From the IMG/VR virus record IMGVR_UViG_3300036715_003363: 64,000 bases of DNA; one strand, written 5' to 3'. Shown piece after piece: positions 44,599-55,503 of this stretch. Made by a program: the position numbers and the translations under genes. Under the pieces are notes generated by a model. That model searched no databases. It had not been told where the DNA came from and saw only the letters and a program-made list of their open reading frames with translations. Origin of the DNA: a virus. Numbering within the stretch: the first letter of the stretch is position 1; each line of letters begins with the position of its first letter.

Positions 44599-45225
44599 TT
44601 AAGAGTAAATTAATGAAGGATCTTCTTCTGTATACGGATTTCCGGTGTCTTTAATGTAGAGCTGAATCTGATCACAGCGAAGATCCGCAGGGCCCTCCAG
44701 CGCAATAACTGCAGGACAATCGCGTAGAGGAAGGAAAATACCCGAGTTCTTTTCGTATGATGTGACTATCGCCCTAAAGATATTGTCAATCTCTTCTCTG
44801 TATTCTGGAGAGTTGTCTCTGTGCTTTCTTTTGACGAGCGGAATTTCTTTATCGAGAGGTAGATAAAAAATAATATCAAATAATTTAACTGTCTCCGCCA
44901 TGAGATATTTGCAATCCATTACAAATTCATCTGAAACTTTCTTATTTGCATTAAGCCAGAGAGTGTACGCAATGTTATCAACAACGCAACGATCGAAAAT
45001 AATATCTGTTTTATCTGACCCTGCAGCTGCTTGAGCTTCGTCAATGAGAGCGTTTAGAATGAGTCGCTGAGATTTTTCATCTCCCTTTCTATTGAGTTTT
45101 ACTTTTGCATCGAGAAAGTCTCTATATGTCTTCTCAGGTTTAGAGTACATTGGCCACCTCTTAAGGAATTCTTCGATGAGAGTCGTTTTGCCGTTCGAGT
45201 GTGTACCAATAATACCGATTTTCAT
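44599..45225 (-). CDS. P-loop nucleotide kinase (AAA_28/NadR-like)
   Basis: IIGTHSNGKTT; FDRCVVDNIAY. Confidence 0.75.
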   Translation of the reverse strand: MKIGIIGTHSNGKTTLIEEFLKRWPMYSKPEKTYRDFLDAKVKLNRKGDEKSQRLILNALIDEAQAAAGSDKTDIIFDRCVVDNIAYTLWLNANKKVSDEFVMDCKYLMAETVKLFDIIFYLPLDKEIPLVKRKHRDNSPEYREEIDNIFRAIVTSYEKNSGIFLPLRDCPAVIALEGPADLRCDQIQLYIKDTGNPYTEEDPSLIYS

Positions 45226-45257
45226 ATATGTTTAATTATACTACTCTGAGCTCTTTA

Positions 45258-46013
45258 TCAAACACGTAGGGCTTTGTTCCAAATCAAAAGTTGTAATCTC
45301 GGACTAAAATTAACACCCATTGCTTTTGCAAACTCTGCAACGGCTGGAGATTTATCAATAAGTTCCTGTCTTGATCCGCAGCAAGGCATAAACCAAATAC
45401 GATTTAAGGGCACATGAATATCTTCCTTATCATCGACATATTTTTTCCAAATCTCCTCAATATCTCTATCTGAAGTGATGACAAATTTAAAGCCTGAATT
45501 TTGCTCTACATGCCAACGAAGAACATCTGGTTTATATGTTTTACTCTCTGGATCTCCATTTGTTGTTAATTTAGGAGAGGTGGTAAATGTTGCACCAACT
45601 TCGTGTTCAACCCATCCTCTATCGGGAGTTATTGTTGCATTTGTCTCGAAATCAATACGCGGCTGAAACTCGTATTTTTTTATAAATTCTTTCACAAAGG
45701 GTAAAAGCTTCTTCTGCTGTTGAAGCGGTTCACCGCCAGTTAGCTTCCAGATAGCACCGTTTTTAAGATTGTCAATAAGAAGATTATCTTTATAAAACTT
45801 AAAAATGTCCTTAAAGGAAGTTTTATTTTTAATTGACCAGGAGATAAAGGAATCACATCCATGAGGAGAATCAGGCGAAGCGAAGCTCTTGCAGGTCAAA
45901 TTGCATCCCGCTAAACGAAAAAATACACTAGGTCTACCTATATGTTCACCCTCTCCCTCCAAAGTATAAAATCCGGGGCCATCATCACTTACTAACAAAA
46001 AGTCATTGCTCAT
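45258..46013 (-). CDS. queE: 7-carboxy-7-deazaguanine synthase QueE (radical SAM)
   Basis: TLEGEG.HIGRPSVFFRLAGCNLTC...CDS, LTGGEP, FETNAT, SPKL, FKFVI, SPRLQ. Confidence 0.88.
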   Translation of the reverse strand: MSNDFLLVSDDGPGFYTLEGEGEHIGRPSVFFRLAGCNLTCKSFASPDSPHGCDSFISWSIKNKTSFKDIFKFYKDNLLIDNLKNGAIWKLTGGEPLQQQKKLLPFVKEFIKKYEFQPRIDFETNATITPDRGWVEHEVGATFTTSPKLTTNGDPESKTYKPDVLRWHVEQNSGFKFVITSDRDIEEIWKKYVDDKEDIHVPLNRIWFMPCCGSRQELIDKSPAVAEFAKAMGVNFSPRLQLLIWNKALRV

Positions 46014-46621: not shown

Positions 46622-47308
46622 TCAAGTAATTAGTTTACTATTAAACAGTTTATATATATTTTCACTGAATTTGCCATACAGGTCAATAATGATTTGCTTT
46701 CTTTGTTGATCACTTCCTACTTTATACATTTCTCTAATTTCAGAAGCGCTTATTACAGTCTTACCTTGTACTTTGAATTGCTCAACACATTCAACTGTTA
46801 TATATCCATGTCTCGCAAAGGGATCAAGAAGATGATTACTGCCATTAACATCTTCATATCGTTTTAGATACGCAGCAGATCCGTCTTTCTTTTTTCCGTA
46901 GCTAAAGCGATCAGAGTCTTTCTGAGATAGTGCGAATATTAAAGAAGTAGAATCTGGATTATACTTTTTTGTAATTTCTATAGCTTTGTATGGATCAGAA
47001 ACTTGAACTACTCTATGTCCTGGAATTCCAAAGAACTCGATAATACTAAGCTTCTCTTTAAAGCTGAATGGAGATTTTTCATTTACAACATTTGATGTAG
47101 CAATAAATACTTCACCTTGTGTAAATCTCTTACACAGTGAGTTATAAGTTTTTGCATGCCCCTTATGAAAGGGCTGAAAGCGGCCAGGAAATATAACCAG
47201 AAGTTTATGCTCTAATTCTGTGTTAGATATTCGAGGAGCGGTAACATCGCGAACTCCAAGACGAGGGTCGCTTGTTTCCTTTAGAAAGAATGAACGAAAG
47301 TCTATCAC
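46622..47308 (-). CDS. Cytidyltransferase-like (HxGH) nucleotidyltransferase
   Basis: FPGRFQPFHKGH, FSFKEK, ISASEIRE. Confidence 0.85.
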   Translation of the reverse strand: MIDFRSFFLKETSDPRLGVRDVTAPRISNTELEHKLLVIFPGRFQPFHKGHAKTYNSLCKRFTQGEVFIATSNVVNEKSPFSFKEKLSIIEFFGIPGHRVVQVSDPYKAIEITKKYNPDSTSLIFALSQKDSDRFSYGKKKDGSAAYLKRYEDVNGSNHLLDPFARHGYITVECVEQFKVQGKTVISASEIREMYKVGSDQQRKQIIIDLYGKFSENIYKLFNSKLIT

Positions 47309-47357: not shown

Positions 47358-48494
47358 TTACTTCCATGTTTTTGGTTGTGTTAGGTTGGCGCGCGAAAAT
47401 TCCAAACGGTTTATTATTTTTACAGCATTTCCTATGTGATCAACTGCAACATATCCCTCAGGATCAGTAGCAACGAGATCACCATTTTCGCTTGAAATAA
47501 ATTGCTTTGTTTTTACTGCTGCATTGTATTTGTTTACAAAAACCATCTTTAGTCGTTCAAGTACTTTTGTAATATGAAAAATATTCAAATAAGTTATTTT
47601 ATGCTCGTTAATATCGTCAATAATTTTATTGCGTAATTCTTCTTTTTTTTGCTTACTTGAAACAGTCTTAAGTTTTTTAATATCTTTATTTGTTCTTTCC
47701 AAATACCACTTAATAAAATCAGTAAGAGATTCTTCCGGATCATCAATAAACTTTTGCTGTCTAATTAATGTGTTGCAAAAAATACTAATTAAAGCGTAGA
47801 TATTATCAGGAATTGCATTCCACTCTGTAAGGCTTGCTGCTGATTTTATAGTGCTTGTAAGGTGTCTGACATTATTAGATTCTTCGTCTGTAAGAAGAAC
47901 GTTACCAGACACATCTTTAAAATTTGCATCCTCCATCCATATATTATCATCTTTAGGAAAGCTTGATACTGATGCACCAAATGTTTTTTTAAGCTGTGTG
48001 AGAGACGGGCCAGTATATTGTGTGTGAATAACCGCGCCGACTTTTGCGCGAAGTACCTTTTGACCTTCAGGGGAGTCTTTTGGAATTGCGTATATAATCG
48101 TATTAGGCTTAAAGGTAATATACGTCACTGCATCACTTATAAGCTCGCCGAGTGATTTATGATCAAACATAAAGTCTCCCTGATATATTCCGTTTTTAAT
48201 AATAGTCGGAAAATACTGAAGTCCTAATTTAAGCTTGTCAACTAGGCCGGGAGCATTGCCGTGATTGCGTTGAATATCCTCTGCTGTATAATTTATCTTA
48301 GGCTCAACGTTGCCAAGACTTTTTGTTGATATGAAAAACTTTCTATTTTCAGGATTAATACCACATATGAATGCCGGAGAATTATGTATGAGAAAGGATG
48401 TTACTCCTGTATGCACATAAAAATTTTCCGTTAGTGTAGTGATATCACATTCAGGGTATTTTTCAGTTAAAATTTTAACGCTTTTAATTCTCAT
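47358..48494 (-). CDS. Fractured gene, C-half: split-intein IntC (38 aa) + C-extein of DUF6267-like KxDG protein
   Basis: MRIKSVK...DITTLTENFYV...LIHN|SPAFICG..FFISTKS...QGDFMF..FKPNTIIYA...PEGYVA...KIINRLEFSRAN. Confidence 0.85.
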   Translation of the reverse strand: MRIKSVKILTEKYPECDITTLTENFYVHTGVTSFLIHNSPAFICGINPENRKFFISTKSLGNVEPKINYTAEDIQRNHGNAPGLVDKLKLGLQYFPTIIKNGIYQGDFMFDHKSLGELISDAVTYITFKPNTIIYAIPKDSPEGQKVLRAKVGAVIHTQYTGPSLTQLKKTFGASVSSFPKDDNIWMEDANFKDVSGNVLLTDEESNNVRHLTSTIKSAASLTEWNAIPDNIYALISIFCNTLIRQQKFIDDPEESLTDFIKWYLERTNKDIKKLKTVSSKQKKEELRNKIIDDINEHKITYLNIFHITKVLERLKMVFVNKYNAAVKTKQFISSENGDLVATDPEGYVAVDHIGNAVKIINRLEFSRANLTQPKTWK

Positions 48495-48882
48495 TAAGTG
48501 TACTTATTAAATCTTTACAGTATGTCTTTATAAAGTAATCACTATCCATATTACCTTTTATATTATTAACATACTTTAAACCAAAAGAAATGTTGCTTCT
48601 TCCTCCGGCAATACCAGGTTCAATGTTTGTCAAAAAACATTTTAAAATGCTGATTTTATGATCAACAGATCTTTTGTACCAGTCATTTGGATTAGCTTTT
48701 CCTCGTACGTCAGCAAATTCTATTCCTGTATATTCACAACGCGAAGGAACCTCACCTTTCTTAATTATTTCTTTAATAGTTTCTTTGGTAACCCCTTCAA
48801 CTTTTTGTCTATAAACACTAAACGCTGCAGCAAACTTAGGTTTTACATTCTCTACACTCCGTTCTTTATTTATGGTATCCAT
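48484..48882 (-). CDS. Free-standing HNH-type homing endonuclease
   Basis: RCEYTG...SVDHKISI...SNISF...NNIKG; sits between the intein halves. Confidence 0.7.
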   Translation of the reverse strand: MDTINKERSVENVKPKFAAAFSVYRQKVEGVTKETIKEIIKKGEVPSRCEYTGIEFADVRGKANPNDWYKRSVDHKISILKCFLTNIEPGIAGGRSNISFGLKYVNNIKGNMDSDYFIKTYCKDLISTLNEN

Positions 48883-48888
48883 CAGATG

Positions 48889-49413
48889 TTATGGATGTAT
48901 TTCTTTTAAAATATCTATAGATGTTAAGAATTGTGCCTCAACCCATCCTCTATTTTCAGTATATACCCTATGATCTGCGGTACATTTAAATGTTGAATCA
49001 TCTTCTAAAGTTATTTCAACCCACTTTTTTTCATTATTATTAATTCTTGGAAATTCAGCAACATTCCATTCGTCTAAACCGGTACTAAAATTATGAGACA
49101 AGACTTTAATATTTTCTTTTGAATTAATAATTTTTTCGATCTCAATATGACCTCTATCTGTAATAAGCTTAGATTCGGGATGAATACATCCGTCATATTT
49201 AGTTGTGACTAAAATTTTTGCATCATTATGACCTACAAAGACCTTATAAAGCTGCTCAATAATATGTAGAGCAATTTTTAGACCCTCCTCTTTTCTTGTA
49301 AGAATTAATTCTTCAAGATGAGTAAGATGCTTTAAGACACCTTCAGATTCCTCAACGATTAAGCAGCCTCTGTAGGTATCTTTATAAAATTGTGTAAAGG
49401 CTTGAGGAAGCAT
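48889..49413 (-). CDS. Fractured gene, N-half: N-extein + split-intein IntN (99 aa)
   Basis: HLTHLEEL...VTTKYDG|CIHPESKLIT (block A)...FKCTADHRVYT (block B)..., then a stop. Confidence 0.88.
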   Translation of the reverse strand: MLPQAFTQFYKDTYRGCLIVEESEGVLKHLTHLEELILTRKEEGLKIALHIIEQLYKVFVGHNDAKILVTTKYDGCIHPESKLITDRGHIEIEKIINSKENIKVLSHNFSTGLDEWNVAEFPRINNNEKKWVEITLEDDSTFKCTADHRVYTENRGWVEAQFLTSIDILKEIHP

Positions 49414-50915: not shown

Positions 50916-51371
50916 TTATGCCCACCGACCTGATATGGCAACTAACTTTTTGGAAATACTTTTATCACGTGCATTTTTAGGTGCTTTTCCGAGCTTTGGA
51001 CCAACAAAGCCATTATAGTATGTGTCATCGAAGAGAACATTCCTTGCCAACTGTTCGACAAGCTCGTAGTAGGACAACTCCCATTTTGATGTACAAGTCT
51101 GTAAAATCTCGAACGTAAAATTGTCCTTACCGATCTTCTCAATATCAGCGTTTAGATCACTTGAAGATCCAGTATAGGACTTCCAATCCGATTCCCTTGT
51201 GTCCTTTCTTTTATTCTTTCTTCCCTTTAAAGGCTTTCTCTTAAAGTTTGATATACACTGCTTCTTTCCAACATACATTCTCTTCGTAACATTGTTAGTT
51301 ATAAGATATATGAATCCATATGAATCAGTCAGATCAACACTCTCCTTAAGTAGCCAGTGCCCAGTATCCAT
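50916..51371 (-). CDS. GIY-YIG endonuclease
   Basis: YGFIYLITN...MYVGKK...ESDWKSYTGSS...FTFEIL...YN. Confidence 0.85.
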   Translation of the reverse strand: MDTGHWLLKESVDLTDSYGFIYLITNNVTKRMYVGKKQCISNFKRKPLKGRKNKRKDTRESDWKSYTGSSSDLNADIEKIGKDNFTFEILQTCTSKWELSYYELVEQLARNVLFDDTYYNGFVGPKLGKAPKNARDKSISKKLVAISGRWA

Positions 51372-51616
51372 TACTTCTTCTTCTTCTTTTTCTTCTTCCC
51401 CTTAGGACAACCCTTAAAGGTCGAGTTTGTAGGTGTATTACGGCGAATCACTTTACCCCCGAGAGCCTTAGGGGTCCGTGCATCGCCCTTAGCGTAATTA
51501 TCACCGCTGAATGCAGTCTCAGTTGATGTAGTGCCAGACCCGAATGCACTTCCAGATCCACCTGCAACGACGTCCTCATTTAGAACATCCTCAATTATTT
51601 TTTTAAATTTATACAT
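51371..51616 (-). CDS. Small basic protein
   Basis: MYKFKKIIEDVLNED; Lys-rich tail. Confidence 0.5.
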   Translation of the reverse strand: MYKFKKIIEDVLNEDVVAGGSGSAFGSGTTSTETAFSGDNYAKGDARTPKALGGKVIRRNTPTNSTFKGCPKGKKKKKKKK

Positions 51617-52134: not shown

Positions 52135-53223
52135 ATGATAAAGGTAGTTTTCGATTATGATCAATCAAGGAAGAAGGGAATTATTATTTCTGATTATCTT
52201 CCAAACATTAGAGAGTATTTCTCTGTAGAGGATAAAAATAACTTCTTTAAAAGACGCTTTGCAGTTGGATATCGCCCAGCAACGAGAGTATATTCCGTTA
52301 CCCCTCAAGGAAGATTTAATGTTAATCTATTTGAAGAGATTGTAGGCCATCTCAATACACTTGAGAGTGCTCTCGATATAAGTGTAACTGATTTATTCAA
52401 GAGTGCCTTTATTAAGCCTGCACTCAAAAAAGACGCATATAAACTTCCAGCAAAATTTCTACCTAGAGACTATCAACAGGAAGCTGTTGAGACTGCTCTT
52501 GAAAAAGGACAAGGCGTATTTGAATTAGCTACCTCTGCAGGAAAAACATTTGTTGCAGCAACACTCTGTAAATCGATTCAAAGAAATTTACATAAAAGAG
52601 ATAAAATTTTAATTATTGTGCCTGATACTGGCCTTGTAAGACAGACGTACGGTGACTTCTTAGACTACGGCCTCACACCAGCTGACGTCACAAAATGGTC
52701 CGGCACTGAAGAATCAATTTCAGACGCTCAAATTATTATTGCTAATATTCAGATTCTAATGTCAAAAAAACAGGATCTAACAATTTTAAAAAAGGTTAAA
52801 TTGCTCATAGTTGACGAATGTATAAGAAGAAATACACTAATTTGTCTCAAAAACGGAAAAATAAAGCCCATACAGGATATTAAAATAGGAGATATGGTTA
52901 AATCTTATAACACTACAAGTAAAAAAATAGAATATAAGAAGGTGTTAAATACATGGAAGAATTTACAAAAAAGCAATAGCTGCAGTTATTTTATAGAAAT
53001 TAAACTTGAAGACAACTCTATAATACATCTCACACCGAATCATAAGGTATACACTCAGAGAGGATATATTAGAGCAGATAAAGTGCGAGAAACAGATGAT
53101 GTGTACATTGCAGACTCGAACTTTACGAGCCTCTGGTATAGATACCAGTATGCAAAAACGTATATTAGAGCACAGCTGTGCAATTTGTTCAAAAAAACAA
53201 AAATATCTCGGAAGACATCTTAA
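52135..53223 (+). CDS. uvsW: UvsW helicase N-half + intein N-part
   Basis: PRDYQ, LATSAGKT, IVP, LIVDE|CIRRNT (block A)...LTPNHKVYT (block B); IntN starts at 52819. Confidence 0.9.
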   Translation: MIKVVFDYDQSRKKGIIISDYLPNIREYFSVEDKNNFFKRRFAVGYRPATRVYSVTPQGRFNVNLFEEIVGHLNTLESALDISVTDLFKSAFIKPALKKDAYKLPAKFLPRDYQQEAVETALEKGQGVFELATSAGKTFVAATLCKSIQRNLHKRDKILIIVPDTGLVRQTYGDFLDYGLTPADVTKWSGTEESISDAQIIIANIQILMSKKQDLTILKKVKLLIVDECIRRNTLICLKNGKIKPIQDIKIGDMVKSYNTTSKKIEYKKVLNTWKNLQKSNSCSYFIEIKLEDNSIIHLTPNHKVYTQRGYIRADKVRETDDVYIADSNFTSLWYRYQYAKTYIRAQLCNLFKKTKISRKTS

Positions 53224-54175
53224 AAATATGCATCAAATCGATATCAAAAAATATTATGATACATACCTCAAAACAATTTTTAAAATGAAAGTAAAGTGTA
53301 TTGGTAGAGTTAACAGAAATAATGAAGATGTCTTTAATTTAGAGGTTGAAGGTAATAATAATTACTTTGCTAATAATATTTTAGTAAGTAACTGTCACAA
53401 AGTTCTTAGTAAGAACAAAGTTAATAAAGTAATTAACACAATTCCTGCAGTATATAAATACGGAATGACAGGAACACTTCCTGACAATAAGACAGATCGA
53501 TGGAATATCATTGGTCACTTCGGAAGCGTCATAATTAATAAGACGTCAAAGGAACTCAGAGATGAGGGTTATATTAGTGATGTAGTTATCGCAATTATAA
53601 AGCTAGTATATTCAAACCTGCCAAGGTTTAAAAAGCCTTCAGCATCTGAACCAACGGCGGCGTATGAAGAAGAATTACAATTCCTGCAAACAAACAAATT
53701 CCGAAATGAGACTATTTGTAAGCTCGTTAATAAGATGGATAAGAATGTTCTTATTATGGTTGATAGATTAGCCCACGGTGAACATCTATTAGAGATCTTA
53801 AAGAAAAATACAGATAAACAGATACATTGGATCTGTGGAGAAGTTGAAATTGACGCTCGCGAAAATGTTAGAAAGATAATGGAAGAAGATAATAATGTTG
53901 TGTGTATCGCAATATCAAAGATATTCTCTACTGGTATTAATATTAAAAACCTCCACTATATTATTTTTGCCTCAATCGGCAAAGCAAGAATTAAACTTAT
54001 TCAAACAATTGGAAGAAGTCTCAGATTGCATGCATCAAAAGAGCGCGCAGTAATTATCGATCTTGCAGATAATCTTCGATACGGAAGAGTTCACGTTGAG
54101 CAGCGCATTGAAATTTATAAGAGAGAGAGTATTAACTACACTATTAAAGAGATAACCGAACCCTTAAACACATGA
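53150..54175 (+). CDS. uvsW: Intein C-part + UvsW helicase C-half (start at 53150 or 53285)
   Basis: MKVKCIGRV..EDVFNLEVEGNNNYFANNILVSN|CHK...GMTGTLP...FSTGINI.NLH...QTIGRSLR. Confidence 0.88.
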   Translation: MQKRILEHSCAICSKKQKYLGRHLKNMHQIDIKKYYDTYLKTIFKMKVKCIGRVNRNNEDVFNLEVEGNNNYFANNILVSNCHKVLSKNKVNKVINTIPAVYKYGMTGTLPDNKTDRWNIIGHFGSVIINKTSKELRDEGYISDVVIAIIKLVYSNLPRFKKPSASEPTAAYEEELQFLQTNKFRNETICKLVNKMDKNVLIMVDRLAHGEHLLEILKKNTDKQIHWICGEVEIDARENVRKIMEEDNNVVCIAISKIFSTGINIKNLHYIIFASIGKARIKLIQTIGRSLRLHASKERAVIIDLADNLRYGRVHVEQRIEIYKRESINYTIKEITEPLNT

Positions 54176-55503
54176 TAACAAAAACAAAACAAAGAGATGT
54201 CGATGATATTAATTCAAGCTTAGATGAAATTCTAAGTGATAAGCAGTTATACGCACGTAAAAAAAGAGTGCGTCGAACAAAGGAAGAACTAAAGCCTAAC
54301 TACGTTGACCCAATTGAAATGGAGAGACTTATTAAGAGCTACTATGTAACCGGAGAGCTATATTCAGAACTTGCTGATATGATTCAAAAGATAGGAACAA
54401 GACTTGGTTATGCTCAGAACTTCATCAACTATTGTGTCGATGAGCAAACAGAGGCACTCACTATGAGAGGGTGGCTCAAGCATAACGAAATTAATGAAGG
54501 TGACATAATTCTTTCATATAATATTCAAACAAGAGCATTGGCGTGGAGCAAAGTGAAAGGAATTTATCGCGCTCCTTATGAAGGATTAATGCATCATCTT
54601 AAATGTGAAGGATTAGATGCGCTTGTGACGCCAGGTCATAAGTTTGTTACATCAGAAGACGGACTGAAGACAGTTGAGAATATTAAATGTACAGATTATG
54701 TTGTATTAAACGGTCTTCCAGTTGAAGATAATACTGCAGTACACAGTGATGAATTTGTTGCTGATCTTGCACCATGTAGAGTAATGTTAACGCACGAATT
54801 TGTATTATCGTTGACACAATCACAGAGAATTAAACTCATTCATACAATGGCAAAGAGTGATGAACAAAATACATCATGGTCATACAACAATGAAGATAAA
54901 GATCTTGTTGATAGTTTTTTAATGCTATGCACACTTGCTGGATTAACAACATCAACAGAACTTGTGCAAAATGTGTCAGAGCTTAGTAGTAATAATTACT
55001 ATGTTGTTAATATTTACAATACACAAAAAACACACTGTCTCGGAGAGTGTATTGATTTTCATGGAGGCAGCCCTGGTCCTGAAGAGGATAATAAATCTAA
55101 TCCAACGGTGCATTATTCCGGAACTGTGTGGTGTCCAGAAACAGAATACGGTACATGGGTGTGTAGAAGAGGTAGCGCAATATACACGACAGGAAATTCC
55201 TACAAGGAGGAAATGATTGGAGATGCAATTATTAAAATGATGACTGCGCTTACAAGACATAGATTTAAATGTGATCTAGGCTTTAATCCATTCTCATATT
55301 TTACAAAAGTTGCTTATCGTGCTTTTCAAAATAGAATTAAGAAAGAGAAGAAAGAGCACGACACAATTCACAGATACCAAGAAGAAGTATACGAACTCTT
55401 AACTGAAAGCGGCCAAATTCCGCATCAGAAAAACACTCACGCAGAAGACGACGGAAGCGATCACTACAATGAGGAGCTTTCAACGGTTTATAGAGATGAG
55501 TAA
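54172..55503 (+). CDS. gp55: T4 gp55-like late sigma factor containing an intein
   Basis: NYVD...IGTRLGYAQNFINY|intein|SYKEEMIGDAI...NPFSYFTKVAYRAFQNRIKKEKK. Confidence 0.9.
   Translation: MITKTKQRDVDDINSSLDEILSDKQLYARKKRVRRTKEELKPNYVDPIEMERLIKSYYVTGELYSELADMIQKIGTRLGYAQNFINYCVDEQTEALTMRGWLKHNEINEGDIILSYNIQTRALAWSKVKGIYRAPYEGLMHHLKCEGLDALVTPGHKFVTSEDGLKTVENIKCTDYVVLNGLPVEDNTAVHSDEFVADLAPCRVMLTHEFVLSLTQSQRIKLIHTMAKSDEQNTSWSYNNEDKDLVDSFLMLCTLAGLTTSTELVQNVSELSSNNYYVVNIYNTQKTHCLGECIDFHGGSPGPEEDNKSNPTVHYSGTVWCPETEYGTWVCRRGSAIYTTGNSYKEEMIGDAIIKMMTALTRHRFKCDLGFNPFSYFTKVAYRAFQNRIKKEKKEHDTIHRYQEEVYELLTESGQIPHQKNTHAEDDGSDHYNEELSTVYRDE
54433..55197 (+). mobile_element. 255-aa intein with degenerate LAGLIDADG-like centre
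   Basis: CVDEQTEALT (A), VTPGHKF (B), YSGTVWCPET (F), YTTGN|S (G). Confidence 0.88.

Follow-up and report, generated by a model that had tools for sequence, protein, structure and literature searches.

Fractured genes, in which the N-terminal half of an intein (IntN), a free-standing open reading frame (ORF) and the C-terminal half of the intein (IntC) follow one another, were described in 2009 by Dassa, London, Stoddard, Schueler-Furman and Pietrokovski (PMC2677866). The systems of that study were gp41-1, gp41-8, NrdJ-1, IMPDH-1, NrdA-2, DnaE, a Felix01-like DNA ligase and a terminase, with IntN fragments of 88–105 residues, IntC fragments of 33–54 residues, and endonucleases of the GIY-YIG or Vsr-like types only. 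A 2025 preprint presented as new the finding that endonuclease VII-like nucleases are encoded in another frame inside actinophage inteins. Here we analyze a 64,000-nt window of the virus record IMGVR_UViG_3300036715_003363, to which all coordinates refer unless another locus is named, and in which the minus-strand gene of a DUF6267 protein is broken by a split intein with a putative nuclease gene between the halves. The type of layout is known, and DUF6267 as a host and the nuclease family appear to be undescribed. Taken as a whole, the explanation that the locus is a naturally fractured gene, carried by a T4-like phage for which metagenomic assemblies are the only source, is given a probability of about 0.8.

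The broken gene consists of three consecutive minus-strand ORFs, 48889–49413 (174 residues), 48484–48882 (132 residues) and 47358–48494 (378 residues), in which the following features were read from upstream to downstream, with the basis of each assignment in brackets:

49189–49413, minus strand: N-extein of the DUF6267 ligase-like protein, 75 residues, ending in motif I, T-T-K72-Y-D-G (DUF6267 profile positions 2–47; gap-free against intein-less homologues)
48892–49188, minus strand: IntN, 99 residues, with Cys1 (block A) and T70-x-x-H73 (block B), beginning CIHPES and holding CTADH (TIGR01445; NrdJ-1 8ubs; alignment with eight alleles)
48889–48891, minus strand: IntN stop codon TAA (sequence reading)
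48883–48888, minus strand: spacer CATCTG, 6 nt, from the IntN stop codon to the nuclease ATG (sequence reading; comparison with other alleles)
48484–48882, minus strand: free-standing putative nuclease ORF, 132 residues, with its own ATG and stop codon, an N-terminally truncated member of its family
48484–48494, minus strand: 11-nt overlap ATGAGAATTAA, with the nuclease stop codon within the first IntC codons (frame comparison among alleles)
48381–48494, minus strand: IntC, 38 residues, with block F (C-D-I-T-T ... N-F-Y-V) and block G (L-I-H37-N38) (aligned with 21 further IntC sequences; P0066 against NrdJ-1)
47358–48380, minus strand: C-extein, 340 residues and stop codon, its first residue the +1 nucleophile Ser (S-P-A-F), with E-G and K motifs near the C-terminus (DUF6267 profile positions 48–376; invariant residues kept)

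An earlier note on this DNA had described the three ORFs with the junctions KYDG/CIHPES and LIHN/SPAF, the CTADH block, and intein halves of 99 and 38 residues, and every detail is correct by sequence reading. The fractured-gene layout that it proposed is borne out by the gene order and by the overlap of the nuclease 3′ end with the IntC start, both as in PMC2677866; the two halves also lie inside the published size ranges, and hairpins ahead of the endonuclease, likewise a feature of the published systems, are found in other DUF6267 alleles. In contrast, DUF6267 is not among the named hosts of that study (PMC2677866), although one published host, a protein of unknown function encoded upstream of nrdB, may coincide with it, and the endonuclease of the window is truncated and appears to be neither GIY-YIG nor Vsr-like but HNH/endonuclease VII-like. 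For this type of nuclease the actinophage inteins of the 2025 preprint are the nearest precedent, as there too an endonuclease VII-like gene sits at the endonuclease insertion point of the intein in a frame differing from that of the intein. Those inteins are otherwise contiguous, whereas the one studied here is split into separately translated halves, and its host, a different protein, belongs to T4-like aquatic phages; the nucleases are likened by type, not by homology.

The split intein is natural, interrupts one host gene, and is well supported, at a level that chance does not reach by far. The host family is cut at exactly one point, since the Pfam profile DUF6267 (PF19782) divides at 47/48, with positions 2–47 on the N piece and 48–376 on the C piece (E 3.1e-73). 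With 247.7 bits, the C piece clears the gathering threshold of 27 bits, and the 22.2 bits of the N piece alone, below that threshold, are expected because only 47 of the 376 profile positions are covered. The earlier note had recommended searching both halves with intein models, and this identified one of them: IntN passes the NCBIfam model intein_Nterm (TIGR01445) at 38.5 bits, where the cut-off is 24.5 (E 1.7e-9), whereas IntC matches none when taken alone. Among solved structures, a Protein Data Bank (PDB) sequence search placed the NrdJ-1 split intein closest to IntN (8ubs, E 3.2e-9). The identity of IntC rests on its alignment with the other alleles, in which it agrees column by column with 21 other IntC sequences of the DUF6267 site, and on the contiguous allele P0066, which matches the NrdJ-1 intein over both halves, C-terminal blocks included (E 1.6e-12). 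Like the intein of the window, NrdJ-1 (8ubs, 9omb) is a short split intein that comes from aquatic phage metagenomes and is split at a similar position; it differs in host protein and insertion site, the sequence similarity being moderate. All residues of a class 1 intein are read in the window (C1, T70-A-D-H73, D17 of IntC in block F, H37-N38 and S+1), and the splicing blocks are conserved in all aligned alleles (9 IntN and 22 IntC sequences). When the exteins are joined in silico, they form a protein of 415 residues whose junction K-Y-D-G/S-P-A aligns without a gap to the K-x-D-G/A-P-A of intein-less homologues (45% identity to P0011), and which keeps all 14 family-invariant residues. The product with KYDG-SPAF at its junction that the earlier note had predicted thus agrees with the intein-less family, which reads KxDG-[AS]P[AS] at this point.

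As judged from a structural model, the host protein itself is most likely a divergent member of the covalent nucleotidyltransferases that contains a helical insert. An AlphaFold model of P0011, the closest intein-less relative, was built from an alignment of 83 sequences and reached a mean confidence (predicted local distance difference test, pLDDT) of 90.6; in a fold search, its best matches were ATP-dependent RNA ligases, with recovery of the adenylyltransferase-domain fold, which supports the earlier guess of a ligase-like protein. Foldseek with the same model gave DNA ligases at probabilities of 0.3–0.6, mixed with carbonic anhydrase noise, and nothing at E ≤ 0.001. Among the residues invariant in the 83 intein-less members are K74, D76, G77, E384, G385 and K397, and motif I, K-x-D-G, is retained in the window as K72, D74 and G75. 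On the sequence level, the Pfam family RNA_lig_T4_1 (PF09511) matches 3 of the 83 members weakly (best E 6e-4), a profile of the DUF6267 alignment searched against PDB sequences found no ligase and only spurious low-complexity or coiled-coil matches, and a single-sequence PDB search with the C piece found no match. The closest known enzymes are therefore, by fold, the ATP-dependent RNA ligases (T4 Rnl1 and Rnl2, Naegleria NgrRnl, the Trl1 ligase domain and T. brucei REL1), from which DUF6267 differs by the lack of a significant sequence match and by a helical insert of ~125 residues (model residues ~240–365) that precedes the E-G motif in the P0011 model. For DUF6267, ligase chemistry is a prediction. 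The intein insertion point directly follows motif I, beside the presumed catalytic lysine K72, and this fits the preference of inteins for active-site motifs.

The cassette of split intein and nuclease gene is present in at least 10 independent metagenomic phage loci. A search with the N piece returned four further proteins of N-extein and IntN, whose contigs show the same three-gene order, and a search with the middle ORF returned only two relatives, both located between DUF6267 pieces; the same placement was seen for four more members of the nuclease family, sampled from long contigs, and at the locus that holds the closest split C piece. The loci with the three-gene layout are L003/4, L005/6, L007, L008, L009/10, L011/12, L013, L014, L016/17, L018 and one locus without DNA. 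When the C piece was used for an exhaustive search, 1,817 representatives of the DUF6267 family emerged, and among the top 150 of these, 15 were IntC-bearing C pieces and 3 carried contiguous mini-inteins of 137–143 residues at the same K-x-D-G/C site, the remainder having no intein there. In the closest pair of loci, nuclease and IntC are more conserved (76% and 77% identity) than the exteins (55% and 66%), and the cassette may for this reason be one that moves between phages. Intein-less homologues are encoded by 351 deposited phage genomes, including T4-like cyanophages, the pelagiphage HTVC008M and the Methylophilales phage Melnitz, and none of these 351 genomes has an intein at the DUF6267 site; the nuclease family had no tblastn match in deposited phage genomes, and 20 kb of the window had no megablast match in the phage collection. 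Our literature search found no paper that mentions DUF6267, and looking there for inteins in cyanophage proteins or ligases turned up nothing on this site. The novelty that had been suggested for the insertion site and the intein pair therefore stands for the searched literature and the deposited phage genomes, whereas in metagenomes the cassette is common. One side match of the IntN search, H31 from a 485-kb uncultured phage, was rejected as a DUF6267 case, as its intein lies in a DnaX-like clamp-loader gene; at L015 3186–5072 (LR745208.1, a 485-kb uncultured phage), we read a DnaX-like clamp-loader ATPase with a contiguous intein extending from L-F-D-E/C to V-S-N/C.

The middle ORF is likely an HNH/His-Me-finger nuclease of the endonuclease VII-like type. 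Its family has the invariant core C-x-Y-T-G-x-x-F-A-D ... N-P-N-D-x-x-K-R-x-x-D-H ... N ... Y-x-N-x-x-K, read in the window as C49-x-Y-T-G ... D74-H75 ... N97 ... Y104-x-N106-x-x-K109, which would follow the classic HNH motif order with most zinc cysteines lost. The label HNH given in the earlier note receives moderate support: the PHROG family endonuclease VII (phrog_1035) matches 6 of 6 family members (best E 1.1e-8), individual members also match HNH phrogs, and two independent structure searches had small HNH enzymes (Gme HNH 4h9d and GVE2 HNH 5h0o) as best matches, with weak scores and from a model of mediocre confidence (pLDDT 66); on the other side, none of the Pfam models, HNH included, matches any of the 6 members. 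Look-alikes in the ESM Atlas, which we treat as a lead only, fall into unnamed clusters and one cluster with Pfam HNH in 18% of its members. A single-sequence PDB search with the nuclease found no match, and its alignment profile found only spurious low-complexity or coiled-coil matches among PDB sequences. A profile search returned 149 relatives, typically of 203–255 residues and none with a Pfam domain, and the family was met at the DUF6267 intein site only. Compared with its full-length relatives, the ORF of the window lacks the N-terminal ~115 residues, a region with CxxC...H...C in several aligned full-length members (L003, L005, L007) and with KYGV in most.

A further difference concerns the DNA ahead of the nuclease gene, as other alleles have 27–82 nt between the IntN stop codon and the nuclease, compared with 6 nt in the window. 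These longer spacers contain hairpins in L005 (5529–5577), L007 (1585–1633), L009 (598–679), L011 (2940–3000) and L014 (2927–3000), with z-scores of −2.5 to −3.7 in L007, L011 and L014. Most of them have an ATAAATA-like box that resembles late promoters (ATAAGTA in L007), and in L011 and L014 there is an AAGGAG box that resembles a ribosome-binding site (RBS); the predicted fold pairs the RBS in L011 and the start region in L014. In the window, TATAAATA boxes occur less often than expected by chance, with none close to the locus, and sigma-70-like sites and terminators show no excess over shuffles. The 11-nt overlap of nuclease and IntC recurs in L003, L005, L007 and L009, with overlaps of 14–23 nt in L011, L013 and L014. 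In the window, the nuclease ORF shares the reading frame of IntN and the IntC ORF is in a different one. The shared frame had been pointed out in the earlier note; it is real but a coincidence, since among alleles the nuclease lies in frame 0, 1 or 2 relative to IntN, and for the same reason we rejected a read-through of the TAA that would fuse IntN to the nuclease.

Since the N-terminal ~115 residues and the regulatory spacer are lost, the nuclease of the window is probably a decaying copy. It is unlikely, if worth weighing, that the cassette is instead still fully mobile, with the 132-residue protein as an active site-specific homing endonuclease that is targeted via the intein halves or another partner. 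Stand-alone HNH nickases of ~90–100 residues do exist, and two of them, Gme HNH and GVE2 HNH, head the structural matches; L018 also has a short form, of 149 residues, at its DUF6267 site. All 22 invariant columns of the six-sequence alignment are also intact in the window copy, which is so by definition since this copy was included. However, most members of the family have the full length, with the KYGV region in most and the CxxC...H...C region in several, the window lacks the spacer that elsewhere holds hairpins, late-promoter-like box and RBS, and a tblastn search within the window found neither a second nuclease copy nor a relic of the lost N-terminal domain. Nuclease activity in this family is predicted.

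Several results weigh against the interpretation as a functioning fractured gene. Trans-splicing of the two halves of the window is predicted from their residues, the C piece had no match among NCBIfam models of intein C-termini, and IntC with five extein residues had no hit among PDB sequences at E ≤ 10. The missing Pfam match of the nuclease family belongs here as well. In the window, no Shine–Dalgarno-like sequence precedes the nuclease start or the IntC start, and because of the latter, expression of the C piece is assumed only. The ratio of nonsynonymous to synonymous substitution rates (dN/dS), estimated for L003, L005 and L007, is 0.1–0.3 for both intein halves, the nuclease and, where dS is estimable, the exteins, with dS near or beyond saturation. 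It could be argued that the gene is dead and that the DUF6267 pieces and intein halves are relics no longer spliced into a working enzyme, as the truncation of the nuclease marks the onset of decay in the cassette and no RBS is visible before the C piece. We consider this improbable: both host ORFs are open over their full length, the splicing residues and 14 of 14 invariant host residues are intact, the low dN/dS in related alleles extends to every part that could be estimated, and the arrangement persists across at least 15 C-piece clusters at 50% identity. More improbable still is a two-subunit enzyme without a peptide bond, whose halves would be joined non-covalently via the intein fragments. 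There are precedents for split enzymes that function unspliced, such as the Aeh1 NrdA cited in PMC2677866, but the break in DUF6267 lies inside the catalytic K-x-D-G loop, where an unremoved HINT domain of 137 residues would cover the active site, and the conservation of Cys1, T-x-x-H, His-Asn and Ser+1 in all alleles would be unexpected if the chemistry were dispensable. An assembly or sequencing artefact, the true gene carrying an unsplit intein and, in frame with it, a nuclease domain, would agree with the single TAA that separates the same-frame ORFs of IntN and nuclease, but it is very improbable in view of the variable frame relation, the conservation of the other-frame IntC with its 11-nt overlap in independent contigs of different samples, and the identical copies of both the N-piece protein and the middle-ORF protein on record from 4 contigs each, which argue against a one-off assembly error.

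Downstream of the C piece lies a second gene of likely relevance for the host protein:

46622–47308, minus strand: cytidylyltransferase-like (HxGH) nucleotidyltransferase (PF01467, E 1.7e-9)

In BLASTP comparisons, this protein matches the N-terminal domain of the fused P0014 with 36% identity (E 7e-37) and P0027 with E 1e-27, and there is only a marginal match to P0065. In other phages, one fractured allele (L016) included, the HxGH domain is fused to the N-terminus of DUF6267, and in view of this fusion, the HxGH protein and the spliced DUF6267 protein of the window probably act together. In the fractured L016 (700–3643)/L017, an N piece of 343 residues comprises the cytidylyltransferase-like domain, the DUF6267 N-extein and IntN, and is followed by an endonuclease of 247 residues and a C piece of 380 residues. 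Long DUF6267 forms (P0012, P0018, P0044, P0057 and P0073) have C-terminal extensions of 300–560 residues; at E ≤ 0.001, these extensions have no Pfam match, and no named partner domain emerged for the long fused proteins. The genes at 44599–46013 may be part of the same nucleotide-related module. The other features of the neighborhood are as follows:

45258–46013, minus strand: radical-SAM/4Fe-4S protein with a weak Fer4_12 match, QueE-like by sequence reading
44599–45225, minus strand: AAA_28 kinase-like protein, downstream of the cytidylyltransferase-like gene
50916–51371, minus strand: free-standing SegE-like GIY-YIG endonuclease (PF19835, E 1.2e-31), 1.5 kb upstream of the fractured gene
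51371–51400 (approximately): long A/T homopolymer-rich tract, where eight consecutive Lys codons close the minus-strand ORF 51371–51616 and the plus strand would encode a run of Phe
52135–54175, plus strand: UvsW-like helicase with a second intein, the N part matching ResIII/DEAD and the C part Helicase_C
54172–55503, plus strand: gp55-like late sigma factor by sequence reading, with a contiguous intein from approximately N-Y/C-V-D-E to T-T-G-N/S-Y-K-E-E

The window thus has three inteins within ~8 kb. In the UvsW-like gene, IntN follows V-D-E/C in ORF 52135–53223, and IntC, which ends I-L-V-S-N/C, lies in the overlapping, other-frame ORF 53096–54175, where it is preceded by a C-x-x-C...H...H relic, with no endonuclease gene present. 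Its IntN and that of DUF6267 share 42% identity over 36 residues. The intein of the gp55-like gene is supported by one weak match to Pfam Intein_splicing (E 3e-6), below the gathering score.

In the fractured-gene model that we favor, an ancestral mini-intein would have resided directly after motif I (K-x-D-G) of the RNA-ligase-like nucleotidyltransferase DUF6267, and a free-standing homing-endonuclease gene would have invaded this mini-intein at the usual split point, giving rise to three ORFs. The translated IntN and IntC would associate and fold into a HINT domain, and class 1 trans-splicing via Cys1, T-x-x-H, the block F Asp, His-Asn and Ser+1 would yield the enzyme of 415 residues with a restored active-site loop K72-Y-D-G-S-P-A, which probably partners with the adjacent HxGH nucleotidyltransferase. 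Alleles with a full-length nuclease would cleave intein-free alleles and so spread the cassette. The nuclease of the window is probably decaying and would be poorly targeted after the loss of ~115 residues and of the spacer, and because its stop codon overlaps the start codon of the C piece, its ORF may still provide the start context for the latter; translation of the C piece would then be coupled to that of the nuclease ORF.

A more far-reaching interpretation would combine these elements into an undescribed and widespread homing system with its own HNH-like endonucleases, NrdJ-1-related split inteins and all life-cycle stages, from the empty site and the mini-intein to the split intein with a full and finally with a truncated endonuclease. 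The truncated nuclease ORF would be kept mainly as a translational coupler, and several phage functions would depend on splicing, namely those of the DUF6267 lysine loop and of the UvsW-like helicase and gp55-like sigma factor with their inteins 3–6 kb away. In its entirety, this combination is quite unlikely to hold.

As for the meaning of these observations, the DUF6267 pair adds a natural NrdJ-1-related split intein with Cys1 and Ser+1 and with many diverged alleles. NrdJ-1, which we take to have Cys1 and Ser+1 as well, is among the fastest trans-splicing inteins known. The inteins of the DUF6267 site are therefore a source of candidate orthogonal protein-ligation tools. The nuclease family, which has no Pfam model and has been met at one intein site so far, is a candidate new group of homing endonucleases with a known target sequence. 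For DUF6267, a conserved gene of T4-like cyanophages and pelagiphages whose annotation is "hypothetical", the RNA-ligase-like fold, the K-x-D-G motif and the fusion or adjacency to an HxGH domain provide a functional lead. The cassette is frequent among the phages of aquatic metagenomes, and the set of its alleles documents stages of the gene-breaking model that was proposed in 2009.

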